Assembly (NCBI GenBank): GCA_910586195.1 | Contig: CAJUHO010000004.1 | Span: 9,295 to 73,294 of the forward strand | Reading direction: 5' to 3' | Length of the DNA: 64,000 nucleotides | Origin: an uncultured Bacilli bacterium | GTDB lineage: Bacteria > Bacillota_I > Bacilli_A > RF39 > UBA660 | Shown: piece by piece, positions 19,800 to 40,117 of the stretch | How the letters are laid out: every line of letters starts with the position of its first letter | Position numbering within the stretch: position 1 is the stretch's first letter | The notes under the pieces: generated by a model | Told to the model about the DNA's origin: nothing | The model's database searches: none | Seen by the model: only the letters and a program-made list of their open reading frames with translations | Position numbers and translations under genes: made by a program

Positions 19800-21083
19800 T
19801 TAATTAGGAATAACAAGTTTCTGTCCAACACTTAATAAATTACTTGTTAGATTATTAGCACGTATAATGGCATCTACTGATGTTCCAAAACGATTAGCTA
19901 TTAACCATAAACTATCACCTGGCTGTACTGTATAAATTGTTTGAGAAGTAGAACTTGGTATAACTAACTGTTGTCCAATTGACAATACATTACTAGTTAA
20001 ATTGTTAGAATTAATAAGATCGTTTACAGATACACCATACTGATTTGCAATGGACCATAAACTATCACCACTTTTCACAGTATAAACAATCTGTCCAGTA
20101 TCCTCTCCTTCGTTTTCAGTACTCGGAATTTGTAAGACTTGGCCTATTTGCAAAACATTAGATGTTAAATTATTTACTCTTTTTAATTCATCTACAGAAA
20201 CACCAAACTTATTTGCAATGGACCATAGACTATCACCAGCTTGAACTATATAAGATGTAGTATTATCTGTCGGTGGGACTATAGGAGTTGACGCTCCAGG
20301 CAATCTTAAAACCTGACCTATTTGTAAAGTATCTGATGTCAAGTTATTAAGACGTTTCAACTCATCTACTGTAGTATTAAATCTATTTGCTATTAGCCAT
20401 AGACTATCACCTGATTGTACTGTATAAGTAGCATTAGAATCTGGCGTCACAACTGTACTAGGCAAATTTAAAACCTGGCCTATCTGTAAAGTATTTGACG
20501 TCAAATTATTAAGACGTTTTAATTCATCCACTGTAGTATTAAATTTCTCAGCAATCAACCATAAACTATCACCCTTCTGCACTGTATAAGTCGTACTACC
20601 AGAAGGTGGAGGAGTTGGAGTTGTATTTGGAACTTTTAATACTTGACCTATTTGTAAAGTATTTGATGTTAAATTATTAACCCTTTTTAATTCATCTACA
20701 GAAACACCAAGTTTATTAGCAATTGACCATAAGCTGTCACCTTTTTGTACTGTATAATATTCTCCCATACCTTCTGGTGGAGTATAATTATATCCACCAT
20801 AGTTGGCAAGTGCTCTCACTACGGCCTCTACATAGTTTAAAAGATCATTTTGCAATTTTTTACTATCATTCGCATTATCAATAAAACCATACTCAACTAA
20901 AAGTGGTTGTGTCTTCCCTGTTAATCGATGTATAAAATAGTAATCCTTCATTGGATCTTCAGGCAAACGTCTCTGATAATACTTGCGCATAATTTGTCCT
21001 TCGCTTCCAATTGCCTCTAAAACATTCTTGGCAAGAGTACTATTGTTCCTTAAAGCATAAACTACCTCTGCACCTTCTCCACC
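19800..21083 (-). pseudogene. C-terminal fragment of an N-acetylmuramoyl-L-alanine amidase (Amidase_3) with six LysM repeats, severed by the insertion at 21084
   Basis: In-frame extension upstream of the track ORF reads GGEGAEVVYALRNNSTLAKN... (Amidase_3 C-half) and stops inside the island at 21090..21092; six LysM units (YTVQ.GDSLW.IA..). Confidence 0.75.
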
Positions 21084-21115
21084 ACAAGGTTAGCTCTCCC
21101 AAAGATTACTACATT

Positions 21116-22051
21116 TCATTTCATAAGTTCTTTTAATATATTAATAACTCCAAGCGGATTTGAATTAATAAGATTCTGTAATTGTTTTAATTCATCCGTG
21201 GCCAACTCTACCATATCTTTATTTTTATCTAAATAATCTACATTAATGTCTATATATAGCAATTCTTTTATCATATCTATACTTTCATTTGTAATATCTT
21301 CTTTATTGATATCAGACATAATAACAAACCATCCAAGAACAATATAGTTTATATCTATAGGTTCATTAGTGGACTTATTTAAATATTTTAAACAAAGATA
21401 CAATAGTAATTCCACAAAATACGCATTTTGCTTTAAAGCAAACACATATAATGAAGTACGATTCTCTTTACTTAACTCTACCATAGCATTGACTACTAAA
21501 GTACTATGAGTAAAAAAGCATAATTTATCATAAAATTCATCTAACATATCTTTTAACTGTTTATTGCTAAAATCATTGAAAAAATCTTTATCTACTAATC
21601 TCAATACTTTTCTAAACTCATTTCTTAATTTTTGTGGTTTTGTAAATGTTCTAGTTTTATCGTCAATACTTAAATTAATAAATTCATTATAAACATTTTC
21701 ATCATAAAATATCATCATACCCATTATTAAATTTTCAAAACAAGATCTTAGTATAGTATTAGCATCGACTATACTATTATTCTTAATTAATTTATGAACA
21801 TTCTTTAGTGACATATTTGTTTGATTTAATAAATTTATTGTTTCTTTTTTTATATCCTTGTTAAAATATAAATCATTTATAAACTTAGAATTATTTATCC
21901 TTAAAACTCTAACAAATTTATTTTTTGTTTTAGTTCTGGCAATTTCTTTTAACTCATTTAGCTTTCCTTTGGCTATTAAATTAACAAATTCATTAAACTT
22001 TTCTTCACCCAATTCATTTTTTAAGTTCTCTATGTCTTTTTCAGTTATCAT
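21116..22051 (-). CDS. hypothetical protein (island cargo, 311 aa)
   Basis: ORF at the left edge of the element; no recognisable motif. Confidence 0.5.
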   Translation of the reverse strand: MITEKDIENLKNELGEEKFNEFVNLIAKGKLNELKEIARTKTKNKFVRVLRINNSKFINDLYFNKDIKKETINLLNQTNMSLKNVHKLIKNNSIVDANTILRSCFENLIMGMMIFYDENVYNEFINLSIDDKTRTFTKPQKLRNEFRKVLRLVDKDFFNDFSNKQLKDMLDEFYDKLCFFTHSTLVVNAMVELSKENRTSLYVFALKQNAYFVELLLYLCLKYLNKSTNEPIDINYIVLGWFVIMSDINKEDITNESIDMIKELLYIDINVDYLDKNKDMVELATDELKQLQNLINSNPLGVINILKELMK

Positions 22052-22128
22052 GCTATCACACCCTTGGGTATCTATTATATAACTATATCTACGAAAGATA
22101 AAGACCTCACTAGATGAATAGTGAAGTC

Positions 22129-23790
22129 TTACTTGCTATACTGATTTTTGCCTTTTCTTCCATAAGGATTACGAGCAACATTTAAATTTTGATATTTAAA
22201 AGTACAATCTGGCATAACACCATATTTATATTGGATTGTTATTACTCTATTTTCATCAATTACTATTCTATCTATCAACGAATGAACTAATTCTTTTTTA
22301 GGTTTATTTAAATCTAATAATTTCTTTATTTCCTTTGTATAATCTGGCAGTTCATCTAATTTAGATTTAACTTCATATTTTCTAATTTGATCTTCATCTA
22401 TACTTTGATTGATAAGTTTTAATTTTTCTTCAAAAGGTTTTGCTAATTCTTTATAAGTATCTGCTGTTATTACTTCATTAAATCTATCTTCATATAAAGC
22501 AGTTAGTCTTTTCGTTATTTTCTCTTTTTCAGCTAATAAATTATTAATGTTGTTATCCAAATTTCTAGTTTGTTTTTGAACTTCAATTTGAACTTTTTTA
22601 TTTAATTCTTCAAAATCTAATCTTTCTAGTTGTTTACATACATCTTTAGTAAATTTTTCCATTATTTGATTCTCTAAATAGTTATATGGAAAGAAATGTG
22701 AACTACATTGTTCTCTAATTGGATCTCTTGCATATCTATTACAATTAACAGTCCAATAATCACGATTTTTTCTATATAGCACTGATAATCTATTCCCACA
22801 TTCTTTGCAAAACAATTTACCTTCTAAAAGTCTTTTTTCTCTTCTATTCTTAGGTTGTATATCTTTTGTATTTTGTTTTATTAATTTAGAGATATATTCA
22901 AAAGTATATTTATCCACTAATGGTTCATGGGTATTTTCAACTATCATCCACATACTTTGATCTAAAGTTATCTTTTTCTTAGATTTATAATTAACTTTAG
23001 TTTGTGTATGTTGAATCATATCTCCAGTATAAATTCTATTAGATAAAATTTTCTTTATAGAAGATATATTCCATTTATCTCTATTAATAAGTCTAGTTGA
23101 ATAATTAGTCTTTTTATAACCACTTGGTGTTGAATACCCTTTTTCATTTAACATTGTTGCTATTCTAGAAGGTCCTATTCCATTTTTTCTCCATTCAAAT
23201 ATCTGTTTAACAATTGGAGCAGTTTCTGGATTAGGTATTAAATGTCCTTTATCTTCTGGATCTCTCATATACCCAAAACAAGGTAGACTACCAACGAACT
23301 TTCCATTCTTTCTTTTTTCATTTAATACATTTCTGATTTTAATTGAATTTTGCTTACTATAATAATCATTACAAGCAATTATAAATGTTGATGAATCATT
23401 ACTAGCTTGATTTTTAAAACTATCATACGATTCTAGTATAGATATAAATCTTATATTATTTTCAGGAAAATATGACTCCATGTAATAGCCTGTCATAACA
23501 TGATCTCGACCTAATCTTGATAAATCTTTTACTATTACACAATTTATCTTTTTATTTTTTATATCTTTAATTAACTTTTGAAATCCAGGTCTTTCAAAAT
23601 CAGTTCCAGAATATCCGTCATCTACATATTCTCCTACTAAATTAAATTTATTATTTTTGACATAATTTGTTAATAACTCTCTTTGATTTATTACACTTTC
23701 ACTATCAGATTCATATTTTTTATCTTTATCTTCTTGAGATAATCTTATATAAATTCCAGTATTGAAATCTATGTCCGATTTATTATTCAC
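22129..23790 (-). CDS. large serine recombinase (resolvase N-terminal catalytic domain plus recombinase domain plus zinc ribbon)
   Basis: YIRLSQED catalytic Ser region, VIVKDLSRLGRD, C-terminal CKECGNRL...C zinc ribbon and coiled-coil; 553 aa. Confidence 0.85.
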   Translation of the reverse strand: MNNKSDIDFNTGIYIRLSQEDKDKKYESDSESVINQRELLTNYVKNNKFNLVGEYVDDGYSGTDFERPGFQKLIKDIKNKKINCVIVKDLSRLGRDHVMTGYYMESYFPENNIRFISILESYDSFKNQASNDSSTFIIACNDYYSKQNSIKIRNVLNEKRKNGKFVGSLPCFGYMRDPEDKGHLIPNPETAPIVKQIFEWRKNGIGPSRIATMLNEKGYSTPSGYKKTNYSTRLINRDKWNISSIKKILSNRIYTGDMIQHTQTKVNYKSKKKITLDQSMWMIVENTHEPLVDKYTFEYISKLIKQNTKDIQPKNRREKRLLEGKLFCKECGNRLSVLYRKNRDYWTVNCNRYARDPIREQCSSHFFPYNYLENQIMEKFTKDVCKQLERLDFEELNKKVQIEVQKQTRNLDNNINNLLAEKEKITKRLTALYEDRFNEVITADTYKELAKPFEEKLKLINQSIDEDQIRKYEVKSKLDELPDYTKEIKKLLDLNKPKKELVHSLIDRIVIDENRVITIQYKYGVMPDCTFKYQNLNVARNPYGRKGKNQYSK

Positions 23791-24123
23791 TTTTACTTCC
23801 TTCTTTTAATCGGATATTAAGACTCATCATCTTATTAGATTGGCAAATCATTAATTTGATGAATCTCCTTTTTCTTCTTTTATTATCTCTTCGATTAGAT
23901 ATTTTAAAATAAGATCTTTAAATGTAGTGCTAGTCAAATAGGCATCCTTCATTATTAAATCACCTATTTAAATTTATGTTTAAATTATTTATTATTGATA
24001 TTTTTATGTACATTTATCAAACTCCTTTCTAGTTATATATTTAAACTAGTTAATTTATAATATTAATATTTTTATATTTTATTTATTATATTATTATAGT
24101 TAAATACATCTTTTGAAAACGAA

Positions 24124-24173
24124 AAATACATCCATTTAATTAGTCCTCATAATCTAGTCCTATGGATGTATTT
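24124..24173 (-). terminator. terminator hairpin (12-bp stem) overlapping the stop of the 99-aa HTH gene
   Basis: aaatacatccat...atggatgtattt, followed on minus by a UUUUCGUUUU tract. Confidence 0.5.
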
Positions 24174-24439
24174 ATCTCATTAATTATAAATATTTTTCTT
24201 ATGAATTTATGTTTAAATTCCATTTTAATATAATTATTATCAGATAGTTCTTTTAATAATCTAGTAATAGCTCTAGTGCCTACATTTAACTTATCAGCTA
24301 AATAACTATTATTAGCATAACAATATCCTTCTTGATAAGTTAATAATACTAATAATCCATATAATAATTTAGCACTAGAACTAACATTAGTATCTGAAAA
24401 TAATCCTATTGGTATTTTTATATAATTATCATAATTCAA
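24140..24439 (-). CDS. helix-turn-helix DNA-binding protein (element regulatory/replication-organiser-like)
   Basis: SSAKLLYGLLVLLTYQEGYCYANNSYLADKLNVGTRAITRLLKEL wHTH pattern; GGAGGTGG RBS. Confidence 0.6.
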   Translation of the reverse strand: MNYDNYIKIPIGLFSDTNVSSSAKLLYGLLVLLTYQEGYCYANNSYLADKLNVGTRAITRLLKELSDNNYIKMEFKHKFIRKIFIINEINTSIGLDYED

Positions 24440-24468
24440 ATAACCACCTCCTAATCATTATCTTTGTA

Positions 24469-24609
24469 ATTATGATTTTTCAACATTTCAATATAACCTA
24501 TCTCTAATAATTCCTCCATCATTTTAGAAATAGACAACTTGTAAAATTTAGCCATTAATTTTATTCTATCGAATAATTCAAATGGTAAGTATAATTTAAA
24601 TATTCTCAA
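24469..24609 (-). CDS. small ribbon-helix-helix (CopG/Arc-like) protein, 46 aa, TTG start; below the ORF-track size cutoff
   Basis: AGGAAGGAG RBS 8 nt before TTG; sequence RIFKLYLPFELFDRIKLMAKFYKLSISKMMEELLEIGYIEML matches the beta-strand/helix/helix RHH pattern; lies 29 nt upstream of the HTH gene. Confidence 0.45.
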
Positions 24610-24906
24610 AAATATCACTCCTTCCTAATAGGATGATTTCCTATTAAATATTGTAATTTTTAAAAAAGCAGTATAAGAAAATAGCACCATAAACTAAAAA
24701 AATCCTTATAGTATAAGGAAATTTAATGGTGCTATTCTTATTTCATACTTACAAAATTCATCCTACTTTGTAGGTTATTATATAGGATATTACTATTTTA
24801 ACCCTTTATTTATAATAGATATTAATTTGTTATTATTATCCTATTTTAATAAAATCAGTAATTTTTATAGGATGACTAGTCATAATCATCGCCTCCATTA
24901 AAACAG

Positions 24907-24929
24907 CAAAAAAGAAGACCTAGGTCTTC
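24907..24929 (-). terminator. rho-independent terminator: 16-bp perfect palindrome GAAGACCTAGGTCTTC followed by U6 on the minus strand
   Basis: Perfect palindrome with A6 on + immediately upstream. Confidence 0.6.
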
Positions 24930-24974
24930 CCATAAATATTGCTATTTTACTATATTTTATCACTTGACTGTATT

Positions 24975-25125
24975 TAGTCAATAAACTAAATTGTATTTTT
25001 TTAGTAGTCGAATAGTAAACTAGATTGACTTTAAACAGTAAACTAAATCGTATTCAAATCGTACGCGAATAGTACAGTACACTAAATTGTATTTGGATAA
25101 TAATATCTTAAACTAATCGCTTACA
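24975..25125. repeat. cluster of five degenerate 15-16 bp direct repeats (TAAACTAAATYGTATT) plus GAATAGTA repeats; iteron-like
   Basis: Copies at 24983, 25017, 25039, 25081 and 25109 with irregular 22-42 bp spacing, in the non-coding region between the helicase stop and the terminator. Confidence 0.5.
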
Positions 25126-25217
25126 TTTTTACAGGGTACTTATTGTAGAGTAATTTCTAAACTTTTATATTATTTTGTAACCAAACGATTTCGTAATTTA
25201 ATTTTCAGTATAAATAG

Positions 25218-27944
25218 CTATTCTGATTTAATTATTTTTTGATTTAATATAGCTAAATCTCTATTACAATCTTTTTTATCAAAACTATCAAATATTTTCT
25301 CTTGACTATCAGCACTCCAATAAACTTTTAAATTTTTTTTAGCTCTAGTAATAGCAGTATAAAAGATGTTTTTTGTTATTCTATCATCAATATTTGAAGT
25401 TATTACTACTTTGACGCTCTCGTACTCAAGACCTTGAGCTTTATGAATAGATATAGCATAAGAAAGATTAAAAGGAATTATATGTGCATATTCGTTTTCA
25501 TCATCATCCTTATCTCGAAATTCATTTACTTTAAATCTAACAATTATTTTATCTTCTTTGTCACTTTCTAGCAATTCTACATCATATGGTGCAAACATTT
25601 AATTTATAGATTTTTTATCAACCTCTATTGAAAACCACATCGCATCTTCATCTTCTTCTATATTTTTAATAATTCCTTTTAAATTATTATGAAGAAATCC
25701 ATTAAATCTTGGACAGTCATTAAATAAAACATAATCATCAACTTTAAAAGTATCCACACCAAAATTATATTCTTTATTTTGATTTGAGCTTTGCATAACT
25801 TTATTTATATTATTAATTCCATACATGCCATCATAATTTAAACATAAAATGATTTCATCATCAAAAGTTTTTTCAAATATATTTTTAGATACTTTTTCTG
25901 AATATTCTTTACTTCCCATTATTGAAATAGCTTTTTTATCATTGACTCTAACACACTTCCATAATTCTAACAAGTCTTTATCAGATGTTCTATGTGTCAT
26001 TTCTAATTCAAAAGACACTCCGTTTTTAAAATACTTACTACATATTTGAAACCAATTACCATATTGGATAGATTCTATTTGATATATATCTCCAACCATT
26101 ACAATAGCATTATAATTACCTTTTTCTAAAATATTTAACATATCTTTATTGCTGACCATACTACATTCATCTATTATTAATAAATCACAGTTTCCATTAT
26201 AATTTTTTTGATAATTCTTAATTGTCATTATTTTTAGTTTATCATTTTCTTGTAATCTTGATTTTAAATTTGTTACAGCGGTATTAGTATTCGAAATTAA
26301 ACATACATTGTAATACTCAAAAACATTAGATAATAATTCTATCATTTTAGTTTTGCCAGTACCTGCTGGCCCATATATAAAAGCAATTGAAGAAGTTTTA
26401 AAAATATCATTTAAAATATTAACTTTATCTTCTGATATTGATTCACTACATAGACAATCTTTATAGAATGTTACTATAGAATTTAAAATACTATTAACTT
26501 CACTAGCTTTTTCTTCTAATTTTTTTATAATTTGAACAGAATTTTTTTCATAATCTTTAATATAAAGAAAACCCTTATCTAAAACTAGTATACTGTCTGT
26601 ATTTTTTAATCTTGATTTAATTTTATTATTAAATTTTTCTACTAACTTTGGAATATCATCAAAATAGCCTATTTCATTAACTGGAGTATATAGCTCATCA
26701 TTATTCTCTGTGTTGTTTTTGATATAAGAATATAATAATTCATCATCTCTTTCAGTTATTTCAACAGATTTAATTAAATCATGAAATTTTGGATTATGAT
26801 TATGAAGAGACATCGCATATGGCATAGCATCGAACAATCCACTCTTTTTATGAATGTACAAGTTACTTAAATATGGGTGTAGTGTTTCTCCTATTTGATC
26901 TCTAATAACTGTATTTATCATCCTTGTTGTTAGGTACCTTATTATATTACAACCAGGCTTATTATTAACAATTATTTCTCTCATTTTTTCTAACATTGAA
27001 CTGATATGATGATTATCTGCACCATTTCTAATATTTTCTATAATTATTTTAAAATCATAATCATTAGAACACAGAATATTATTTATAGTGCATTCATTAT
27101 CACTTAGATAATCCATCAAATTACGATACTCTTTATAGTTTTCATCAAAGTTTTTAGTTTCTCCCATTATCTTGAAAAGATTTTTTAATTCACAAGTTCT
27201 AATAGCAGTTTTGCATGAAGTAATTACTTTAATTTTTACTTTACCTACATTTAAGTCAATAACATCATCCACCGAAGTTATATTAATAGAGTAATTATCT
27301 GGAATATAAATTTTAGAATAAAATGTTAATCTTTCAAATTTATTATTATAATCTGTCGCTTTTGATAAAGTTATCTCATAATATATATTTCCTTTTGAAA
27401 AAATAGTATTACTCTTTTCAACATAAAATTTTCCTTTTATTGTTTTTTTATTTTTTTGATTTATATGTTCAATCCTATCACAAATAATATCATAGTTTTC
27501 CTTCATTGACTTATCATCATATACTGGAAATAAATCAATATTGTTAATTATTTTTAAATCAAATTCTTCTTTTAATAATTTTTTAATTAAGCAGATGTAT
27601 CTATAATAATATTTTACCAGTCTTTCTGCACTATCCTCATTAGGTGTATAATGAGAAGCTGTTCCTTGTAGATAATTATGAAAATCACATAAAAATTTAT
27701 ATTGCTTCTTACCTTTTATAGCATCAAATGAAGAATTTACATTATCATAATGTGTATCTAACTCTAAATTATTAATTTTGTTATTAAGTAGTATAGCAAC
27801 ATCTTCTACTAAATTTCTCAATTGAGATAAAATATTTTCTGAAAGAAATCCTTTATCTTTAAGTTTTGTATCATAATAATAAATATTTTTATCTATAACT
27901 TTTGAAATATAGGATATTTCCTTTTCTGGCGATATTCTAGACAT
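25218..27944 (-). pseudogene. SF1 (RecD/AAA_30-UvrD_C_2-like) helicase with about 480-aa N-terminal unknown domain, interrupted by a single in-frame TAA (781 aa plus 126 aa in the same frame)
   Basis: Walker A GPAGTGKT, Walker B LLIIDECSMV, GDIYQ motif; motif VI IHKAQGLEYESV lies in the downstream 126-aa ORF, which starts with ATG immediately after the TAA in the same frame. Confidence 0.65.
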
Positions 27945-28003
27945 TACTCCACTTCCTTAATGCAATCTATAACACTTTCTATAATTTTAATTATTTCAAT
28001 ATT

Positions 28004-29452
28004 TTACTTTTCTTTTGTATTTATAATTTTTTCTATATCATCACAAAGAGGTAATAATTGTTCTAACTTATCTACTATTCTTTGTTGTTCTTCTATTGGT
28101 GGTAATGGAATAAGCAAATTGTTTAAACTTTTTGAATTTAATGTAGTTCCTTTAATTGCACTTTTACTATCACCATATTTAGTCATAAATGGTAATATTT
28201 TAAATAAATATTGTTTTAAGATTTCAAAATCATAATTAGGATATATTGAAATTATTCCTTCATTGTGAAAAGCATCTATTTTTAAAATCGAACATCTTCC
28301 AACTGTCAGTTTAAAACTCATTAATAAAGTACCTTTTTCAGAAAATTTTTCTTTAAACACTTCCTTATATGCTTTTTCTGATACATATTCTTTTGTGTTA
28401 TCAATAAAACCATTTTCCACCATATCAGAAATTGATACCCAATGATATTCATCTTTGCTCCAATAACTAGAATCGCTCCTAGGTGGAGTTTTACCGATAT
28501 TAAAAGAAACAAGCTCTCCCAATTTTATCCATACCCAATTATTAGGTAACTCAAATGGATAATTATCAATACTGGTTACCTTTTTACCAAGTTTGGTTTC
28601 TATTTCTTCTAAAACATCAAGAGTATTTTCGCTATTTTTTTGATTTGTTAATTTTCCAGATACAGCACTTTGAATTAAAGATTTCCTTAAATCTTTTGGA
28701 AAATCTATTTTCAATTTTTTAATATCTTCTTCTATTGGTTTCAATTCATTGAGTTTTGCAAATAACTCTTCTATTTTATCTACTATTCTTTGTTGTTCCT
28801 CTATTGGTGGAATCGGAATATAAAAATTTCTTAAGTAATTTAAAGAAACAAATTGCTGAACTCCACCAGAACTTTCTTTTTTCATCTTTTCTTGCGAAAA
28901 ATATAAATAATAATACAAAAATTGATTGTCTATACAATCTTTGATTGGATTTTTTAAAAGTGCAACATTTTTTATGCAAAAATCTTTTTCGGTTTTTATA
29001 ATTACCGGGTTTCCTATACTGCCTATCATTGCAAATAATATATCATCATTTTCCACTTTAGATCTAATATTTATACTTTTAGCATCTTCATCAGAAATGT
29101 ATTTAACATTACTCATATCTAATGTCCCATCAATATTAAGGTTTTTACTTGTGACTAATGGGACTCCATCTTTATAATATTTTGGACTATCATGAGTTCC
29201 ATCTCTAACATCAATTGCGTAATATAACTTAGTCCATATCCAAGTTGACGGTATTGTATATGGATAATTTTTTTTAATTGGTTTTGAAACTTTTTTATCT
29301 GCTTTTATTACTTTATTTTCAATTAATTTATTATGATTCGCCTCTATTTTTTTTTCAATAATATTTATATTGGTATCTGTCAAAATCGTTTTACTTAATT
29401 TACCACTAAAAGCATAATTCAATATCGATACTTTTAACTCATCTACTATCAT
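28004..29452 (-). CDS. hsdS: type I restriction-modification specificity subunit (two TRDs)
   Basis: Two target-recognition domains separated by conserved central and C-terminal repeats (PIPPIEEQQRIVDK occurs twice). Confidence 0.85.
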   Translation of the reverse strand: MIVDELKVSILNYAFSGKLSKTILTDTNINIIEKKIEANHNKLIENKVIKADKKVSKPIKKNYPYTIPSTWIWTKLYYAIDVRDGTHDSPKYYKDGVPLVTSKNLNIDGTLDMSNVKYISDEDAKSINIRSKVENDDILFAMIGSIGNPVIIKTEKDFCIKNVALLKNPIKDCIDNQFLYYYLYFSQEKMKKESSGGVQQFVSLNYLRNFYIPIPPIEEQQRIVDKIEELFAKLNELKPIEEDIKKLKIDFPKDLRKSLIQSAVSGKLTNQKNSENTLDVLEEIETKLGKKVTSIDNYPFELPNNWVWIKLGELVSFNIGKTPPRSDSSYWSKDEYHWVSISDMVENGFIDNTKEYVSEKAYKEVFKEKFSEKGTLLMSFKLTVGRCSILKIDAFHNEGIISIYPNYDFEILKQYLFKILPFMTKYGDSKSAIKGTTLNSKSLNNLLIPLPPIEEQQRIVDKLEQLLPLCDDIEKIINTKEK

Positions 29453-30936
29453 TTTATATCACCGATTAATTTAATAATTTCTTGCAGTTTTATATCAAGT
29501 TCTTTTTCTAATTTTTCTCTTTTCTCGATAAAATTATCCATAGTTTCTTTTGGTGATAAAATAACTTCTTCTTTAACTGGAAAACCACATTGATCTAAAT
29601 TATAATTTAATTTTTCTATTTCACTAACAATAAATTTTTTTGATTTCCAAGTTTCAGTTAAAGATTCATCTTCTTTTATGTCTTTAATTTCCTCGCGATT
29701 ATTCCACCAATCGATAACTGGTTGTAAATGTTTTAATTCTACTGGTTTAGTTTTACTAAATGCTTTATAACCATCTGGCATATCCATTCTATAAAACCAT
29801 ATTTCATCAGTCTTTTTGGTTTTATCAAAGAATAAAAGATTAGTTGCTATACTTGTATATGGTGCAAAAATTGATCCTGGAAGCCTTATAATAGTATGTA
29901 AATTGCACTCTTCAATTAATTTTTTCTTAATTGCTATTTTAGTATTATCATTTCCAAATAAGAATCCATCTGGTAACACTATTCCTACTCTACCATTATG
30001 TTTTAATCTATAAAATATCTCTACCATAAATAAATCCGCTGTTTCTGAATTCCTTAAATCTGCTGGAAAGTTTTGCTGAATTGCTTTTTTTTCTGTTCCA
30101 CCATAAGGGGGATTCATTAAAATTACATCAAACTTATCTTGTTCTTCATAATCTCTTACATTTGCTTCAAGAGAATTACCTCTAATAATTTTTGACTCAT
30201 TTATATCATGAAGTAGCATATTAGTTACACATAATAGGTAAGGTAAAGATTTCTTTTCAACTCCGTAAAAAGAATTGTTTAATATTTCATTATCATTGGC
30301 ATCTTCAACACTTTCTTTCATGTAATTAAGAGCAGATACTAGGAATCCTCCAGTACCACAAGCAAAGTCGGCCACTGTTTCGCCAATTTTTGGTTCAACC
30401 ATTTTAACTATAAAATCTGTAAGTGCCCTTGGTGTATAAAACTCCCCAGATTTACCAGCACTTTGTAATTCTTTAAGAATAGTTTCATATATTTCATTAA
30501 ATGCATGTCTTACTTTAAAGTCAGTTAAATCAATTTCATTTAAAATATTAACTACTTGCCTTATTAAAACTCCATCTTTCATATAGTTATTTAAGTCTGT
30601 AAATACTTCTTTTACTAGTCTTCCTCTAGTATCAGTATTCTCATCAACTTCTAAATCTTTTAAATGAACGAATAATTGAGTAATAAAAGATTCCATTTCA
30701 CCACCAGTAATGGCTTTCCCATCTTTCTTATCAATAGCCCAATTTCTCCATCTATATTCTTCTGGAATTATTGAAGTATAATTATCTTCATAAATTTCCC
30801 ACTCTGATTCTTTAGCATCATAAAGTTTTAAGAATAACATCCATACTATTTGTTCAATTCTTTGAGCATCACCATTAATTCCAGCATCCTGTCTCATTAT
30901 ATCTTGTAGTCTTTTTATCATTGTGCTTATATTCAT
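29449..30936 (-). CDS. hsdM: type I restriction-modification N6-adenine DNA methyltransferase subunit
   Basis: FxGxG SAM-binding FACGTGGFL; catalytic NPPYGG; overlaps hsdS by 4 nt. Confidence 0.9.
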   Translation of the reverse strand: MNISTMIKRLQDIMRQDAGINGDAQRIEQIVWMLFLKLYDAKESEWEIYEDNYTSIIPEEYRWRNWAIDKKDGKAITGGEMESFITQLFVHLKDLEVDENTDTRGRLVKEVFTDLNNYMKDGVLIRQVVNILNEIDLTDFKVRHAFNEIYETILKELQSAGKSGEFYTPRALTDFIVKMVEPKIGETVADFACGTGGFLVSALNYMKESVEDANDNEILNNSFYGVEKKSLPYLLCVTNMLLHDINESKIIRGNSLEANVRDYEEQDKFDVILMNPPYGGTEKKAIQQNFPADLRNSETADLFMVEIFYRLKHNGRVGIVLPDGFLFGNDNTKIAIKKKLIEECNLHTIIRLPGSIFAPYTSIATNLLFFDKTKKTDEIWFYRMDMPDGYKAFSKTKPVELKHLQPVIDWWNNREEIKDIKEDESLTETWKSKKFIVSEIEKLNYNLDQCGFPVKEEVILSPKETMDNFIEKREKLEKELDIKLQEIIKLIGDIK

Positions 30937-30947
30937 AATTTACCCTC

Positions 30948-33284
30948 CTATCCGTATAATTTTGTTTTAATCATATTAATCATGCTATTATATTTTTCTT
31001 TTCCACCAAAGATATTATTAACTATTTGTACTAAACCACCAAACTTATTAAAGTTTTTAACATTTAATGTTTTAATATTTTCAAGTTCGGTTACTCCGTT
31101 ATTTCTATAAGTATTTAATAATTCTTCTACAACTTCTTTTTGCTTTTCTGTATAAATATTCATTTCTTCTGATTCTATTACTTTTTGTATTCTATCTTCT
31201 TTAGAAACAAAGTCTATATCATAAGCAACATTACTTAACAAATCAAATTCATCAACATTTGTGTCATTAAGTTGTTCGAGTAATGCATCAACCATAATAC
31301 CCTCACTTGATAAATAATCTAAAAATTCTTGTTTTGATTCCGCTCTAAACCAACTTTGAACGAATCCGTCATGATTTTCATATAATCTTTTCAATTGCTT
31401 TTTTGAATACTCTGCAATAGATTCTGTTATTAATTTTCCATCAGCATCATAGTACTTAACAGTTTCCTCAATTATAGAAACATCGACACCCTTTATATAT
31501 ACCTTTTTTGACTCGCCATCTAATATATCACCACTAAGAGGTTTTGCTGGTTTAGGTTCTGGTACACCATAATCTACAGGTAATATATCTTTATCACCAT
31601 TTCCACCTTCAACTGTTAAAACCATTTCTGCTGGTCCATTAAATGATGGATCAGCAAACTTTTCAGAGTTATTTCTAAAGTCCATTATAGTAAAATATTC
31701 TTTTCCTTTGTTTGGAAGCAATCTTGTACCACGGCCTATAATTTGCTTAAACTCTGTCATGCTTGCTATTTCTTCATCTAAAACTATTAATTTAACTGTT
31801 TTAGTATCTACTCCAGTTGATAACAGTTTAGAAGTAGTTGCTATTACTGGATAATCAGTATTGGCATCAGTAAAATTTTCTAATTGTCTTTTTCCTATAT
31901 CATCATTACCAGTAATTCTTACTACATAATTTGGATTAATTTTAACCATATCAGTATTTTCATTTACTAATGCATTACGCATTCTTAATGCGTGTTCTGT
32001 ATCTACGCAAAATACAATTGTCTTTGCCATACGGTCTGTTGCTTTTAAAAATTCTGTAATTCTTTTTGCTACTACTTTAGTTCTTTCATCTATAACAATA
32101 GTTCTATCATAATCTGAAATTGTATATTCTCTATCTTCAACTTCATATCCCTCTTCATCAAGTTTACCTTTTTCTGGGCGATATCCCTCTAAATCTCTGT
32201 CTATTCCTACTTTAACAACTTTATATGGAGCTAAAAATCCATCTTCAATACCCTGTTTTAATGAGTAAGTATAAATAGGTTCTCCAAAATAATTAATATT
32301 AGATACATCCTCTGTTTCTTTCGGAGTAGCAGTCATACCTATTTGTATAGCATTATCAAAATAAGTCAATATTTCATGCCAATTGGAATCATCTCTTGCA
32401 CTACTTCTATGACACTCATCTACTATAATTAAATCAAAGAAGTCTTTAGTAAATTGTTTATATATATCCTTATCTTGACTTTTCATTTGATGATATAAAG
32501 ACATATATATTTCAAAAGAAGAATCCATATTTCTATGTTCTATTTTTGTCATAACTTTTTGAAAAGGTTTAAAATCGTTTTGCATAGTTTGATCAATTAA
32601 GATATTACGATCTGCTAAATAAAGTATTTTTTTACAAAATTTAGTTTTATGTAATCTATGTATTATTTGAAATGCAGTAAATGTTTTACCTGTACCAGTA
32701 GCCATTACTAACAAAAGTCTTTTTCTACCTTTAGAAATGGCTTCAATAGTTTTATTAATAGCAACCCTTTGATAATATCTTGGAGTTTTATTAATATCTA
32801 AAAAGTAATAAGGTTCTGTAATAAGCTTTTCTTGTTCTTCATCAATATTTTTTTCTTTTAAATATCTTTGCCATAATTCTTTTGGAGTTGGGAACTCATT
32901 TATTCCAATCTCTTTTTCTTCACCAGTAATCATATTGTGTTCGTAAAAGCCATCACCATTAGAAGAATAAGCAAAAGGAATATCTAAATCATTTGCATAA
33001 TCCATTGCTTGTTGAATACCATGTGATACTGTTACTTTATTATCTTTTGCTTCAACTATAGCAATGGGTAAATTAGATTTATATGATAATAAATAATCCA
33101 CTTTTTTACCTTTACTTCTTTGTGCCACATTTTCTCTAACATTTATCTTACCAGCAGTATAATAATACTCACATCTGATTTGACTTTTAATATCCCAGTC
33201 TGCTTTTTGTAAAGCAGGAGTTATATATTTTAACTTAATATCTTCTTCCGTTAAATCCTTTTTAGTTAATCCTGCAAAATCCAT
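30948..33284 (-). CDS. hsdR: type I restriction enzyme R (restriction/translocase) subunit
   Basis: HsdR_N-type N-terminus (ITPALQKADWD); helicase motifs MATGTGKT and IIVDECHRS; 778 aa. Confidence 0.85.
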   Translation of the reverse strand: MDFAGLTKKDLTEEDIKLKYITPALQKADWDIKSQIRCEYYYTAGKINVRENVAQRSKGKKVDYLLSYKSNLPIAIVEAKDNKVTVSHGIQQAMDYANDLDIPFAYSSNGDGFYEHNMITGEEKEIGINEFPTPKELWQRYLKEKNIDEEQEKLITEPYYFLDINKTPRYYQRVAINKTIEAISKGRKRLLLVMATGTGKTFTAFQIIHRLHKTKFCKKILYLADRNILIDQTMQNDFKPFQKVMTKIEHRNMDSSFEIYMSLYHQMKSQDKDIYKQFTKDFFDLIIVDECHRSSARDDSNWHEILTYFDNAIQIGMTATPKETEDVSNINYFGEPIYTYSLKQGIEDGFLAPYKVVKVGIDRDLEGYRPEKGKLDEEGYEVEDREYTISDYDRTIVIDERTKVVAKRITEFLKATDRMAKTIVFCVDTEHALRMRNALVNENTDMVKINPNYVVRITGNDDIGKRQLENFTDANTDYPVIATTSKLLSTGVDTKTVKLIVLDEEIASMTEFKQIIGRGTRLLPNKGKEYFTIMDFRNNSEKFADPSFNGPAEMVLTVEGGNGDKDILPVDYGVPEPKPAKPLSGDILDGESKKVYIKGVDVSIIEETVKYYDADGKLITESIAEYSKKQLKRLYENHDGFVQSWFRAESKQEFLDYLSSEGIMVDALLEQLNDTNVDEFDLLSNVAYDIDFVSKEDRIQKVIESEEMNIYTEKQKEVVEELLNTYRNNGVTELENIKTLNVKNFNKFGGLVQIVNNIFGGKEKYNSMINMIKTKLYG

Positions 33285-33352
33285 ATTACCACTCCAAACA
33301 CTTTATATACATAAGTATAGCATAAAATAAACGTTCTTTTAACTGCCATAAC

Positions 33353-33381
33353 GAAAAAAGTAAGATAAATTTTACCTTACT
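33353..33381 (-). terminator. putative terminator after the Fic gene (agtaag...cttact, U6 on minus)
   Basis: 6-bp stem, A6 on + upstream. Confidence 0.35.
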
Positions 33382-33465
33382 ATCTATAACTCTTTTCTTA
33401 TTACTTTACTATTTATTTTTTCTTTGATTTTATTTCCATATACATATGACTTTTTTATCACAAAT

Positions 33466-34302
33466 TTAAAATAATTCTTTAACTATTAAATCTCGCGAAT
33501 GCAAATTATTATTTTTACCTAATAGTAAGTTTTCATAAAATTTAACTAAATAACTACTATCTTCCTTTATATTTAAATAATTATTAAAATAATTACTTCT
33601 AACTAAAGCATTTCTAAAATATACTGATTTATCTTTAAATAGAGTATTATCTACATTATAGCCTAAACTAATTAAATATTTTTCTATAAATAATACTGTT
33701 GTTCTAGTATTACCTTCTCTAAAAGGGTGTACTTGCCATATATTAGAAGAAAATTTAGTTATATTATTAATAACTTCAACTATATTCATTTCTTTATAAT
33801 TTTTTTCTTTTTCTAAAGATATATCATATTCTAATGATTCAGTTAAGGTATTACAATCACCATATGCTACTGAATCATTATTTAATATCTTTTCATGTTT
33901 AGAAAAATCTATTTTTCTAAATTCGCCAGCAAATTCATAGACATCTTGAAATAAAAACTTATGAACATATTTTAAATAATCAACTGATAATTCAAATTTG
34001 TTTTCTTGTAATAATTCAACTATTCTAGCAGATACAAAATCACATTCTAATTCATTATGATTTATTTCATTTTTATTTTCTTTTTCAATATAATATTCTT
34101 TTAATTCTTTTTTCACTTCTTCAATAGTTAAATTACCCTCTACATTTTCCTCTAATAGTTTTTCTAAATATTTAGAAGGTTTTAAATTATCTACTTCTTG
34201 AAGACCAATAGCCATATCCCATTGTAAATGTTTTACATAATTACTAGATTTATATTCTTCTTCATATTCATTAACACTTGAATCTAATTCTTTTTCACTC
34301 AT
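33466..34302 (-). CDS. Fic/DOC family protein
   Basis: Fic motif HPFREGNTRTTVLF, a variant of the HxFx(D/E)GNGRxxR consensus; 278 aa. Confidence 0.75.
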   Translation of the reverse strand: MSEKELDSSVNEYEEEYKSSNYVKHLQWDMAIGLQEVDNLKPSKYLEKLLEENVEGNLTIEEVKKELKEYYIEKENKNEINHNELECDFVSARIVELLQENKFELSVDYLKYVHKFLFQDVYEFAGEFRKIDFSKHEKILNNDSVAYGDCNTLTESLEYDISLEKEKNYKEMNIVEVINNITKFSSNIWQVHPFREGNTRTTVLFIEKYLISLGYNVDNTLFKDKSVYFRNALVRSNYFNNYLNIKEDSSYLVKFYENLLLGKNNNLHSRDLIVKELF

Positions 34303-34376
34303 AATTTAAACCTCCTAACTATTACTAGTATAACATATAAATTGAAGTTTTAGTTTATTATTAATCTCATTATAAA

Positions 34377-36431
34377 CTAATAGTTTATACTTTGCTCGAT
34401 AACTGTAGCTAATGATCTTAATTTAAATACTGACTTTTTTACTTCATATAATAAATACATTGTATTTTCAGGTAAACGATTTTTATCAATTGCACGTAAT
34501 ATTCCAACTTCTTCACTAGAAAGAGTTTTAAATATATTAAGCAATTCTTCTAAAGATGGTGAAACATTTGTATCTCTTAATAGCAAAAACAAATCGCGTG
34601 GTGATAAAGCTCCTAGTTGCTCCTGCTCCTTGTAAAATTTTGCAATCACATTGTTGATGATTTCTAATTCTCTTTGCTTTGTTGATATAGTTTCAGTAAG
34701 TTGTGAAAAACCATTAGGCACTTGAAAAATCAAAGATATTTCTTGCAGACTTAATCCATATTTAATTGTTGATTTAGCCACTTCAATCAATTGCTCTACT
34801 GTAATTAATGAAAATTTCTTTTTTCTAGCATGATTTATTATAGTATCTCCACTAAAATGAGGTCCAACTATTGCTACATAATCAGCACTATTTTTATCTT
34901 TATGGGTATCTATTGCTACATCGCTTATATCACCATGTGAAACTTGACCTCCGGATTTGGATTTTCCATCTATTATTGCTGTAATAATTTTCCCATTATC
35001 ATCCTTCCAATGTACAACAACATCTGTATCTCCTGGTCCACCAATTTTCTTTGTTTCAAAGCCCATAAAAGTCATCATTTCAGCAATTGATTCCTCAAAG
35101 GCAACTCCTACTGGTTTCCCTTCAGCATTTGGATTTTTGGAAGTATTATCTAAGCGATTAGCAATGATAGAAAGATAATCTTCAAAATTATTATCTAAAT
35201 ACCCACTATCTTTATTATTCTCTTCTTTTTTTTCAAGCTGTTCCATATTTAATAATGGTAAATCAGACACAAAACATATTCCTAGTGGTGTTGCTTTTAA
35301 ATGCAGATATTGTGGTTCTTCTAAAAGACCTGCTTCAATCAAAAATCCTGCTATCCATCTAGCCTTTTCTTGATTAAGGCCATACAATTTAGCTTGCGCA
35401 TATACATCATTACGAATTATATCGTTTTCAGCATACTTTATCATTTCACCTACAAATCTCATATGTGAATGAAGAATTCTAATAAAATCTAAATCATTTC
35501 CCGTTTCAATCCATGATTTAGCAGTAGCGGTTGCTACATATATATTTCGACCAACCTCTTCAATAAAACCTGCTACTTTTAAAAAAGGTAACATTGATTC
35601 AACACTACTTAATTTAAGATTAAATTCTTTACATATAAAGTCAAAAAATTTATTTCTAGTAATTTTCTCAGTTGCATATTGAACTATTATTCGTAAATTT
35701 TCTATTCTATTTGGGCTAGGTGCCCATATATTATATGTACTTCTCTTATTATGTAATTCTGGTGAAACCATTAAATTATTAAGTAATATAGCAATATCTT
35801 CAGGTGGAGCGGAAATTTCCAATTCATTTAAATCAAAATCCATTGGTTCTAAAATTTCAGAAGGGATTAAGTCCCATTCATTTAATACTTTTATACCATT
35901 ATCAGTTACTTTCCATTTTCGATTGCCAATTTCCTGTATTAAGTCTAAGACCTCAAGCCAATCCATCCTTCTTCTAATATTACTTAGGTGATTCCACTTT
36001 AAATCATAATCCTTACATATTGACTTATTAACCTGTTCTACTGTAGCAGGTTCTAATGCAATCAGATTTAATACCTCTCCAAATAAACGTATCTTTTCAT
36101 TAATAATATTAGCAAGCTGCTTTTTTGTTAAATTGTTTAAAAACTCATTCCCTTTCTCTGTTAAACATAATACTCCTGCTTGGTTACTTACAAGTCCAAT
36201 ACCTTTTAAAAAAGGCATGTACTCTCTCCATGGCAGTAGCTGATTAATTTCAAGTATATTTGGTATAGTATTCAAATCATTTGCCTTGTTCTCACCTACT
36301 AGTATAATAAGATTTTTAACCAAAACGAACCAATTAGTTTTACCGCCTCTTAAATCAGGAATCGACCAACTTTTTCTTCGCCATTCATTTCTTTTTTTAT
36401 CTAATTCTTGTCTATTAATAACCTCACTCAT
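34377..36431 (-). CDS. 684-aa protein with C-terminal Mrr-cat-like (PD-(D/E)xK restriction endonuclease) domain and large N-terminal winged-helix-like region
   Basis: FMGFETKKIGGPGDTDVVVHW...AIIDGKSKSG...DYVAIVGPHFSGDTIINHARKKKFSLITVEQLIE matches the Mrr catalytic core (GDGGID / QCK motifs). Confidence 0.55.
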   Translation of the reverse strand: MSEVINRQELDKKRNEWRRKSWSIPDLRGGKTNWFVLVKNLIILVGENKANDLNTIPNILEINQLLPWREYMPFLKGIGLVSNQAGVLCLTEKGNEFLNNLTKKQLANIINEKIRLFGEVLNLIALEPATVEQVNKSICKDYDLKWNHLSNIRRRMDWLEVLDLIQEIGNRKWKVTDNGIKVLNEWDLIPSEILEPMDFDLNELEISAPPEDIAILLNNLMVSPELHNKRSTYNIWAPSPNRIENLRIIVQYATEKITRNKFFDFICKEFNLKLSSVESMLPFLKVAGFIEEVGRNIYVATATAKSWIETGNDLDFIRILHSHMRFVGEMIKYAENDIIRNDVYAQAKLYGLNQEKARWIAGFLIEAGLLEEPQYLHLKATPLGICFVSDLPLLNMEQLEKKEENNKDSGYLDNNFEDYLSIIANRLDNTSKNPNAEGKPVGVAFEESIAEMMTFMGFETKKIGGPGDTDVVVHWKDDNGKIITAIIDGKSKSGGQVSHGDISDVAIDTHKDKNSADYVAIVGPHFSGDTIINHARKKKFSLITVEQLIEVAKSTIKYGLSLQEISLIFQVPNGFSQLTETISTKQRELEIINNVIAKFYKEQEQLGALSPRDLFLLLRDTNVSPSLEELLNIFKTLSSEEVGILRAIDKNRLPENTMYLLYEVKKSVFKLRSLATVIEQSINY

Positions 36432-36679
36432 ATTGACACCTCTATTTCAAAAAAATAAGCAGTATCCATCTTAAAAGATTAAATACTGTTATCTTATATA
36501 TAATAACACATTTTTCGACATTTTTTAGTATTTTAAAGTAATTTGTACTTAAAATTCTAAGTTTAAAGCACTTATTATCTTCAAAATATGATTTTTGATT
36601 AAATTACTATAATTTATTTTCATTTAAATACAGCCGTCCTAATACCCTTATAAATTTAATCAATGCAAGAGCTAAGTCC

Positions 36680-36962
36680 CTCCACCTGCATTTATGTGAT
36701 TAGATATTACAATGACATTGGGATCATTTCCATAAGCATCCAATATTCTTCTAACTCTCTCATCCCTATCAACTGTTTCATCACTACCTCTTACAATTGT
36801 GGTTGGTATTCCAAGTTCTTTTAATCGATCATACATATACTGTGCCGCTTTTAAATTTAAATCTTTTTCTTTTAATCCATTTGCTACCGCTCCTGGATCA
36901 CTACCACCATGTCCAGCATCTACCACGATTCCTTTAATCGCTCTATCGTTCATCCTTTTCAC
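36680..36962 (-). pseudogene. N-terminal fragment of the same Amidase_3 gene (MKRMNDRAIKGIVVDAGHGGSDPG...ISNHINAGG), truncated by the island
   Basis: Amidase_3 N-half motifs; reading frame terminates 2 codons into the island DNA (..GGT*). Confidence 0.75.
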
Positions 36963-40000: not shown

Positions 40001-40070
40001 AATAGCCTAAACTTTTTAAAAATTTAACCGTCAAAATATTTATATCCCTTTCTGTAGGCATTCTTATCAC
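37062..40070 (-). CDS. hsdR: type I restriction enzyme R subunit (second system)
   Basis: 1002 aa; HsdR_N; helicase motifs GSGKSL, VVADEAHRSH, C-terminal domain. Confidence 0.9.
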   Translation of the reverse strand: MIRMPTERDINILTVKFLKSLGYSYMPGESIPRDYSDVILEANLVDALFRINEDLTEEVIREAVRIIKDFNQNNLLNNNKIFSEYLHTGIRVAECINEETKYHTVRLIDFDNVNNNEFLVSDQFTIVDHSVKRPDIIIFINGMPVVVFELGSMACGNVNLEKSYQRLKGYMNDYIPKLFYYNQFSVITDGLVAKAGTITYDYSRFSEWKKASCYDEVVKRNTYESLIHGMFDKKVLLSLLNHYILYSNDDKILSFYHQYYGVEKAIDRTLHAKDGRAGILWHTQGSGKSLSMVFYVANMIRKLSSSTVIVVTDRNDLDNQLYETFCRCSNFLRQMPIKIENRQDLKNKISERNSGGIIFTTLQKFQEATGLLSTREDILVVADEAHRSHYGVDAVMKFDMQKMEAVRRYGTAKYLHDAFPNATYIGFTGTPIENGDHSTTEVFGPVIDIYDMTQAIEDGSTLPILYESRMLDSNLSEQSVEAIDNCYHYLDSEEEVDIPDIGKYYHLVTTARKVLENPNRLENIVKDIIRHYEDRKDFTAGKAMVVASSRQSAFIMYQKFLELRPDYKDKVHMIVTPNNDDSKEMQDAISTIKRKRELEILFKDANSNFKIAIVVNMWLTGFDVPCLGTMYIDKPMKSHNLMQAIARVNRVYKDKSGGLIVDYVGLKKWLEEAFEIYTVRDQKQFINNENASLLLLDNLKLVRELFSAFDYSNFAFLGNQGRYDLINRGANFILAREETKRKFLQYSYDIKRLYSVCTGSVEKQYRDEILYVISVRSFLNKIQGGSFELSQINKDIANILESAINNDIGVVQKRTSLKLMDDADLMKLEKMSSKNVAVELLQHMLKEYIERIGTTNIILMEKFSSQFKEIVTRYNERLSDVCVEQTFEKMIKLKNDIEKETQISEKYHLSMEEKAFYDVLSYAADIKGEMVDESLVEMAKELTNVVNSNMTIDWDIKMSARAHMRVEIKKVLIRCNYPLAKRDEVVKIIVQQAELKGRSMVE

Positions 40071-40117
40071 ACCTCTTTCTATAAGTTAATTATCTATTTC
40101 ATTGTTATAACAAGCAT

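Follow-up and report, generated by a model that had tools for sequence, protein, structure and literature searches.

A premature TAA codon interrupts a PDC-S53-family helicase gene in a defence island of an uncultured Bacilli bacterium: a probable recent loss-of-function allele

A candidate defence gene of the PDC-S53 family, encoding an SF1B helicase, is interrupted by one in-frame TAA codon in the stretch of uncultured Bacilli DNA analysed here (64,000 nucleotides; hereafter the window). We propose, with a probability of about 0.8, that it is a real and recent loss-of-function allele of this gene. The stop itself almost certainly inactivates the gene and makes it an ordinary young pseudogene, which gene callers report as two separate ORFs of 781 and 126 aa (Table 1).

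The original prediction had read these two ORFs as a single helicase gene carrying one nonsense codon with an ATG next to it, and this reading is borne out by the reading frames, the profile matches and the summed length. The ATG (25598..25596) abuts the TAA (25601..25599) in the same frame, and the 126-aa ORF that it opens ends at 25218. The PADLOC profile PDLC05035 (PDC-S53, 900 positions) matches the 781-aa ORF over positions 5-770 with an E-value of 3e-239 and the 126-aa ORF over positions 779-894 with an E-value of 6e-48, the register of the second match continuing from that of the first. Together, 781, 1 and 126 codons make 908, and the closest intact homologues are exactly that long. 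Because one profile is matched in consecutive register and the parts add up to 908, the two ORFs are treated as one gene.

Table 1. Coordinates of the interrupted helicase gene, its parts and its neighbours in the window.
Feature	Coordinates	Strand	Remarks
Whole interrupted gene	25218..27944	-	908 codons plus terminal stop; PDC-S53-family SF1B helicase
N-terminal ORF	25599..27944	-	codons 1-781 plus premature TAA
Premature stop TAA, codon 782	25599..25601	-	CAA (Gln) in the three closest intact relatives
C-terminal remainder, called as 126-aa ORF	25218..25598	-	ATG = Met783; motifs V and VI
N-terminal region, residues 1-500	26445..27944	-	helical bundles around an OB-like beta-barrel, AF2 models
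OB-like beta-barrel, residues 165-246	27207..27452	-	AF2
Walker A / motif I GPAGTGKT, residues 525-532	26349..26372	-	
Walker B / motif II IIDECS, residues 590-595	26160..26177	-	
Beta-rich 2B (SH3-like) insertion domain, residues 723-810	25515..25778	-	AF2 secondary structure
SF1 motif V HKAQGLE, residues 834-840	25425..25445	-	past the stop
SF1 motif VI YTAITRAKK, residues 862-870	25335..25361	-	past the stop; arginine finger R867
Terminator-like hairpin and T-run	24912..24931	-	about 290 nt downstream of the helicase gene
Type I R-M operon	28004..33284	-	intact; directly upstream of and co-directional with the helicase gene
hsdR	30948..33284	-	
hsdM	29449..30936	-	
hsdS	28004..29452	-	
Carrier island, 15.6-kb serine-recombinase element	21077..36686	-	splits an Amidase_3-LysM gene
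Large serine recombinase	22129..23790		within the island

The suggestion that the helicase lies in a defence island also holds: the Type I R-M operon is its immediate upstream neighbour, and 59 nt separate the end of hsdS from the helicase ATG. No terminator-like site was found between hsdS and the helicase gene or between the two ORFs, and a promoter scan, with 42 sites found against an expectation of 38.5, told little in DNA so rich in AT. The island is bounded on either side by the 7-bp core GGTGGAG, which stands at 21077-21083 and again at 36680-36686, and the helicase gene is cargo of an element inserted in an amidase-LysM gene. R-M genes are found upstream and co-directional in 27 of 80 related loci. 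The immediate upstream neighbours (n=74) include HTH (7), ResIII (6), Fic (6), Methylase_S (4) and GmrSD (4) genes, and no gene recurs among the downstream neighbours of the family loci; an obligate partner gene was rejected on account of this upstream heterogeneity and the lack of downstream recurrence.

At least 23 contigs, taken from NCBI MAGs and from individually assembled SRA runs, encode the exact 781-aa product, in every case followed by the 126-aa ORF, and the ten copies that were fetched show 100% identity to the window across stretches of up to 22 kb. All carriers of the TAA represent one clonal lineage, so that their recurrence shows the allele to be real, but not its independent origin or persistence. 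The possibility, left open by the original prediction, that the stop is a sequencing or assembly error and the genome really carries a sense codon at this position is therefore highly improbable: the contigs sharing the identical TAA were assembled independently from different runs and MAG projects, and the site, whose coding-strand context is AAATTAAATG, lies outside any homopolymer.

The nature of the lesion was addressed by alignment to intact homologues, which the original prediction had called for. The three closest, L011, L012 and L013, share 96, 94 and 98% nucleotide identity with the window, and two of the three sit in the same island; their frame is uninterrupted. Since codon 782 is CAA in all three, the lesion is a single C>T transition in the coding strand, converting Gln782 to TAA. 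An ATG is present at codon 783 in L012 and L013 as well and is therefore ancestral; it is only because this codon was by chance already ATG in the ancestor that a "126-aa ORF" can be called. Other relatives encode Gln, Ser, Lys, Asn and further residues at codon 782, and never a stop. The protein with exactly Gln782 restored is absent from a collection of 15 billion proteins, indicating that the immediate ancestor is unsampled.

A regulated full-length protein of 908 aa could in principle be made from this allele by programmed readthrough or recoding, as had also been suggested, and the frame, which is unbroken past the stop, is the only point in its favor. We regard it as very improbable, given that a stop at codon 782 is conserved in no relative and that TAA, the least leaky bacterial stop, is also the commonest genuine stop among the long ORFs of the window (28 TAA, 12 TAG and 5 TGA). 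The stop stands in the context TAA-A, no Rfam element was found, and the sole tRNA within the window is tRNA-Trp, with no suppressor tRNA there.

The dN/dS of the window gene versus intact relatives is 0.17-0.19, compared with 0.19 among intact genes. The changes polarised to the window's lineage comprise nine synonymous, five missense and one nonsense; those downstream of the stop are two synonymous and no missense, and no second lesion was found in the window gene. Because dN/dS shows no relaxed constraint, the nonsense event appears to be recent on this sequence measure, and the same unrelaxed constraint is equally compatible with a two-piece protein that still functions.

A natural split into two genes is contradicted by the family survey. 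In all 80 genome loci, which span many phyla, the frame is a single one without interruption, and all 120 close-relative clusters listed run through the junction, 119 of them at full length; the only short close relative, P0038 (761 aa), is short at its N-terminus with the junction intact. In the two 90% clusters, all other complete members are 908 or 911 aa long. Differing lesions are carried by seven other singleton contigs, including frameshifts, a nonsense, a deletion and one unresolved case. In an exhaustive search of representatives, short family members end at residues 768-821, three of them with a separate C-terminal ORF, and in three further short representatives the gene is broken internally, near residues 683, 692 and 700-868. 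A conserved or recurrent split was accordingly rejected, since every split allele found is a singleton and neither the lesions nor their sites agree. Of the three explanations first put forward for the stop, recent pseudogenisation is the one favored by the CAA of the relatives, the recurrence within a clone, the dN/dS values and the lack of a conserved split.

The motifs quoted in the original prediction, GPAGTGKT, DECS and GDIYQ, are all found in the 781-aa ORF, the last of them (motif III) at residues 618-622. Pfam AAA_30/AAA_19 matches residues 513-675 (AAA_30, E 2.7e-19), and UvrD_C_2 in the 126-aa ORF covers motifs V and VI. The claim that the 126-aa ORF carries motif VI is correct, with T866/R867 invariant in the family alignment, but the peptide quoted for it was the wrong one: following SF1 nomenclature, we take IHKAQGLEYESV to be motif V and YTAITRAKK to be motif VI. 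An AF2 model was made of P0001, an intact homologue with 95% identity (pLDDT 85, pTM 0.79), and Foldseek matched it to RecD (5ld2_D, E 4e-18) and RecD2 (3gpl_A, E 1e-17), followed by Pif1 and Dda. Residue 782 is located in this model in a loop of the 2B domain that is flanked by strands 768-776 and 789-793. In the homologue alignment this loop varies and is prone to indels.

It is proposed that the C>T change at Gln782 ends translation after 781 residues. The product would keep the N-terminal module, the RecA-like domain 1A (Walker A, Walker B, motif III) and the beginning of 2A, and would be deprived of the last two 2B strands and the final third of 2A. In the window allele, the polypeptide that contains domain 1A thus lacks motifs V and VI. 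Judging from other SF1 helicases, the loss of these motifs, including the arginine finger, presumably leaves a product that cannot couple ATP hydrolysis to DNA translocation.

Activity could be retained if ribosomes reinitiated at the ATG and the 781-aa and 126-aa pieces came together again at the 2B loop to form a working two-piece helicase. Stop and start are contiguous (TAAATG), which makes some reinitiation conceivable, and the break falls in a variable surface loop; selection shows no sign of relaxation and the C-terminal part has gained no missense change since it was split off, the clone is widespread, and three relatives (L099, L100 and L102) are broken within about 12 residues of the same site. 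We nevertheless consider such a functional fission unlikely. The ATG is ancestral and not an adaptation, and the sequence upstream of it contains no Shine-Dalgarno sequence, whereas the true helicase start is preceded by its own GGAG. The C>T change is the sole one around the junction, a split is kept in no diverged lineage, and the C-terminal fragment would have to supply strands to both 2A and 2B. Lesions are found outside the loop as well, as described above.

The positions of the lesions bear on a more specific form of this idea, in which the 2B loop at residues 768-792 tolerates cutting and the window allele yields a two-piece enzyme via termination-reinitiation at TAAATG. Such a cut-tolerant loop would account for the finding that, of the eight family lesions rated as verified or probable (the window's among them), five lie at residues about 768-792, and their concentration there could mean that breaks are tolerated; the clustering is only suggestive because ascertainment favored N-terminal fragments longer than about 550 aa. 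Two lesions near residue 770 are frameshifts in T7/T8 runs, which points to a mutational or sequencing hotspot rather than to tolerance, and we judge the two-piece enzyme to be quite unlikely.

The truncation might also be adaptive, either by giving the shortened protein, which would combine a sensor/OB module with a crippled motor, a new or dominant-negative role or by an inactivation that relieves toxicity or allows uptake of a mobile element. The allele is found in a successful clone, and the island is otherwise intact, its Type I R-M operon included. On the other side, the allele has not recurred independently, and nothing sets it apart from neutral hitch-hiking of a recent loss. We hold adaptive truncation to be improbable, and a recent loss of function remains our preferred reading.

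A nuclease-helicase or Nhi-like architecture had been considered plausible for the N-terminal region. This is not supported, as no nuclease domain or fold was found by Pfam, by PDB sequence search (residues 1-490) or by Foldseek. The region has no match to a characterised domain in Pfam, NCBIfam or, for residues 1-490, PDB sequences, and Foldseek searches of PDB and BFVD with the N-terminal model (pLDDT 87) returned only OB-fold matches of the SSB/PriB-like type, with E-values above 1e-3. A helical and OB-like N-terminal model that is free of a nuclease narrows the hypotheses on how the PDC-S53 family acts.

As a young loss-of-function allele of a candidate defence gene, the window copy is of a kind common in defence islands and by itself matters little. 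Annotators should join the two ORFs and mark them as a single pseudogene. The natural TAA/CAA pair formed by the window and L013, which lie in near-identical islands, offers a ready-made control for a first functional test of PDC-S53.

Among known systems, the gene is closest to PDC-S53 itself, a single-gene phage defence candidate of PADLOC-DB v2 with about 900 aa, which the two ORFs together match from end to end, and it lies directly beside a Type I R-M system; the window copy differs in being broken by a nonsense codon and is a member by descent. The PDC candidates, 145 in number and untested according to their source, were found by "guilt by embedding" (bioRxiv 10.1101/2024.01.29.577857); PDC-S53 was not found by name in a literature search or in the supplements of that preprint. 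RecD, RecD2, Pif1 and Dda share with the gene the fold of the C-terminal about 400 residues, motifs I-VI and a 2B insertion in 2A, but have no counterpart of its N-terminal module of about 500 residues, and in the window allele motifs V and VI are cut off. The scores of the window gene against the RecD (TIGR01447) and RecD2 (TIGR01448) models are 109.5 and 99.2 bits, compared with cut-offs of 310 and 500. GajB, MkoA and PDC-S68 show only P-loop/UvrD_C-level similarity over short stretches (E 1e-4 to 1e-14) and no full-length match, and Nhi differs in its nuclease domain, which the window gene lacks by Pfam and by fold. The closest parallel for the allele is with sporadic pseudogenes of defence genes, which likewise involve one point mutation that inactivates the gene in a single clone, with the orthologues of sister lineages intact and unrelated lesions in other family members. 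The sole oddity here is that the codon after the stop is ATG, so that gene callers report two tidy ORFs.

The helicase gene is laid out as a 781-aa ORF (ORF1), an in-frame TAA and an ATG opening a 126-aa ORF (ORF2), as confirmed from the ORF coordinates, and all helicase motifs quoted in the original prediction were found in the sequence. The segment IHKAQGLEYESV, then labelled motif VI, was misassigned: following SF1 nomenclature, we take IHKAQGLEYESV to be SF1 motif V and YTAITRAKK (residues 862-870) to be motif VI. Both lie within ORF2, spanned by a Pfam UvrD_C_2 match, and residues 513-675 of ORF1 match AAA_30/AAA_19. One PADLOC profile of 900 positions, PDC-S53 (PDLC05035), is matched by both ORFs in consecutive register (positions 5-770 by ORF1, E 3e-239; 779-894 by ORF2, E 6e-48). 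With the fused sequence as query, 557 homologous proteins were found; 119 of the 120 best clusters are 900-931 aa long with query coverage of 98-100%, and the sole short match among them (P0038) lacks N-terminal sequence but reads through the junction intact. The top homologue is 95% identical and has exactly 908 aa (781 + 1 + 126). The consecutive register and the uninterrupted 908-aa homologues support the prediction of one helicase gene with a nonsense codon, and on these comparisons ORF1 and ORF2 are regarded as one gene.

Positions of the interrupted gene, of domains in the AF2 model of its intact homologue P0001, of lesions in short relatives (loci L099-L105) and of other genes of the window
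Feature	Position	Strand	Remark
ORF1	27944 to 25599	minus	781 aa, ending in TAA at 25601..25599
ORF2	ATG directly after TAA, same frame, to 25218	minus	126 aa
Helices	residues 6-159		P0001 model
Five-stranded beta subdomain	residues 167-246		P0001 model
Helical region	residues 250-500		P0001 model
RecA-like domain 1A	residues about 505-640		P0001 model
Domain 2A, first part	residues 641-722		P0001 model
Beta-rich 2B insertion	residues 723-810		P0001 model
Domain 2A, rest, with motifs V and VI	residues 811-892		P0001 model
Frameshift in T8 run, conserved Phe-Phe codons	residue ~770		L099 about 5663-5700
Frameshift in T7 run, Phe-Phe codons as in L099	residue ~770		L100 about 2630-2640
Frameshift	residue ~780		L102 about 6460
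ORF end, putative lesion	residue ~790		L101 about 6400, 103 nt from contig end
In-frame nonsense	residue ~683		L104
Frameshift	residue ~692		L105
Internal deletion	residues ~700-868		L103
Large serine recombinase	22129..23790		in element
Second hsdM	42081..43577
Second hsdS	40118..41179
Second hsdR	37062..40070

Three close intact relatives were available as DNA (L011, L012 and L013, with 96%, 94% and 98% nucleotide identity); L013 is from a mouse-gut 'Bacilli' MAG, and L012 and L013 share the island layout of the window. All three carry CAA (Gln) at the window's TAA, indicating that the lesion is one C>T transition. The next codon is ATG in L012 and L013 too, and the post-stop ATG is the ancestral Met783 rather than one evolved to restart translation. 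The sequence upstream of this ATG contains no Shine-Dalgarno; the true helicase start has GGAG 5 nt upstream.

A sequencing error, as originally considered, is contradicted by the recurrence of the allele: the exact 781-aa product, with the 126-aa ORF after it every time, recurs in three NCBI MAG assemblies and in several SRA runs that were assembled separately, on 23 or more contigs in all. All 10 fetched copies are 100% identical to the window across the gene, and the identity extends for 22.3 kb in locus L001. Because the allele is identical on separately assembled contigs and no homopolymer occurs at the stop site, we consider it real. All carriers form one clonal lineage, so the recurrence is silent on independent origin or long persistence. 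A natural two-gene architecture is not supported, since GTDB representative genomes show the gene as a single uninterrupted frame at 80 of 80 related loci (spanning Bacillota, Bacteroidota, Actinomycetota, Patescibacteria and others) and every other complete member of the two 90% clusters has 908 or 911 aa. Programmed readthrough, also proposed at the outset, fares no better: no relative compared has a stop at codon 782, among genuine stops of the window's long ORFs TAA is the commonest (28 TAA, 12 TAG, 5 TGA), no Rfam element was found, and the sole tRNA in the window is tRNA-Trp.

The intact homologue P0001, 95% identical, was modelled with AF2 (pLDDT 85.1, pTM 0.79); by Foldseek the model matches RecD (E 4e-18), RecD2 (E 1e-17) and then Pif1 and Dda in the PDB, which makes the helicase core SF1B. 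The helicase scores far below the equivalog cut-offs of RecD and RecD2. In this model residue 782 falls in the 2B domain, in a loop that links strands 768-776 and 789-793 and is the least conserved and most indel-prone stretch of the homologue alignment. Because the stop sits in this loop, the 781-aa product lacks two strands of the 2B domain, along with the portion of domain 2A bearing motifs V and VI and the arginine finger. By analogy with SF1 enzymology, we infer that such a product could not translocate on DNA.

For the N-terminal region, a nuclease-helicase (Nhi-like) architecture had been suggested, which is not supported: Pfam, PDB sequence and Foldseek searches showed no nuclease domain or fold there, and in PADLOC the matches to other helicase defence systems were only P-loop-level. 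Modelled on their own, residues 1-490 of the window's protein (pLDDT 86.9, pTM 0.82) had no Foldseek match in PDB or BFVD at E <= 1e-3; the only consistent resemblance is that of the beta subdomain to SSB/PriB/Rim1/DUF3127 OB folds, with TM 0.5-0.65 across some 95 residues. These models suggest that the intact family combines an SF1B ssDNA motor with an OB/helical nucleic-acid-binding or sensing module. The motif TASHYTP (27642..27662, residues 95-101) lies in the only low-confidence loop of this module (pLDDT below 50); its S97, H98, Y99, T100 and P101 do not vary among 72 homologues, and the motif may bind a ligand or take part in catalysis.

The NG86 dN/dS of the window against its intact relatives is 0.17-0.19 (0.07-0.17 for the post-stop part), compared with 0.19 between two intact relatives. 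With L013 as sister and L011 and L012 as outgroups, changes on the window lineage comprise 9 synonymous, 5 missense and the nonsense, with 2 synonymous and 0 missense after the stop. The helicase gene has no second lesion; hsdR, hsdM and hsdS each match their own PADLOC profile end to end, and the island is otherwise intact. These patterns indicate purifying selection on the gene until very recently, and dN/dS fits a very recent loss and a still functional gene equally well because too few changes have accumulated. Among the options first offered, the evidence favors recent pseudogenisation. In our reading, a single clonal lineage associated with the gut carries a genuine nonsense allele of recent origin in a PDC-S53-family SF1B helicase gene, and this allele is most probably a young pseudogene (probability about 0.8); such an allele is ordinary. 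The intact sister allele (L013, 8001..10727) has 9 nonsynonymous versus 3 synonymous lineage-specific changes, small numbers that possibly reflect MAG consensus noise or diversifying selection.

A search of ORF1 against 1.84 billion representatives was exhaustive and gave 1076 matches at E <= 1e-3; lengths of 895-930 aa prevail among the 150 best. Seven C-terminally short representatives were dissected, each on a singleton contig with its own different lesion, a picture of sporadic decay and not of a conserved split. Residues 768-792 hold 5 of 8 lesions, the window's included, in a sample whose ascertainment favored long N-fragments, and two of these are homopolymer slips, possibly sequencing errors. 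The clustering is suggestive and may stem from errors in sequencing, from a mutational hotspot or from a break point that is tolerated; that the 2B loop tolerates being cut is improbable.

The helicase is the last gene of the co-directional run hsdR-hsdM-hsdS-helicase, and the first terminator-like hairpin downstream is at 24931..24912. R-M genes (hsdM/S/R, Dcm, MutH-like) are upstream and co-directional in 27 of 80 genome loci and only downstream in 3; helicase and upstream neighbour share a strand in 64 of 74 loci. The genes immediately upstream form a mixed set of restriction or defence genes, and no downstream neighbour recurs across the genome loci. The helicase tends to close restriction operons of different types. 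PDC-S53 is one of 145 candidates from 'guilt by embedding' in R-M, BREX, DISARM and Hma loci (bioRxiv 10.1101/2024.01.29.577857); the R-M neighbourhood fits this mode of discovery and is not new. We found no text in the literature naming PDC-S53.

Most of hsdS (28137..29395) has no DNA alignment to L012 or L013, the flanking hsdM and helicase being 94-98% identical; its products have 482 (window), 432 (L012) and 471 aa (L013), a divergence that looks like target-recognition domain swapping. Outside the element there is another Type I R-M system (37062..43577), with a PIN_12-domain gene (41180..42100) embedded between its hsdM and hsdS; because the PIN gene has no PADLOC match, it is a possible unlisted defence candidate. 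Also outside the element, an AbiD/Abi_2 gene (44803..45756; PADLOC AbiD, E 2e-57) adjoins an HtrA-like protease. Island cargo includes a Fic protein (33466..34302; PADLOC candidate PDC-S72, E 4e-80) and a 684-aa protein (34377..36431) with winged-HTH domains and a Mrr_cat/FokI-cleavage-like nuclease domain. A SpoIID-domain gene is found at 46877..47932.

The helicase is cargo of a 15.6-kb serine-recombinase element that interrupts an Amidase_3 + 6xLysM autolysin gene. A 96-aa ORF (36962..36672) holds only the N-terminal half of Amidase_3 (profile positions 1-78 of 174), and the domain carries on in the frame that precedes the 6xLysM ORF (20990..19800). The two junctions share a GGTGGAG core (36680-36686 and 21077-21083), and in-silico deletion of the intervening 15,603 bp yields one open 519-aa ORF with a complete Amidase_3 (profile 1-173 of 174, E 4e-27). 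L012 and L013 have the gene order of the window, with an Amidase_3 fragment at the far end of the L012 island, and L093, another related locus, combines this insertion design with other defence cargo; its helicase is intact. In its design the element is reminiscent of the sporulation 'intervening elements' that interrupt genes in spore formers, among them skin, SPbeta and gin (PMC4191935, PMC5595907, PMC5025042).
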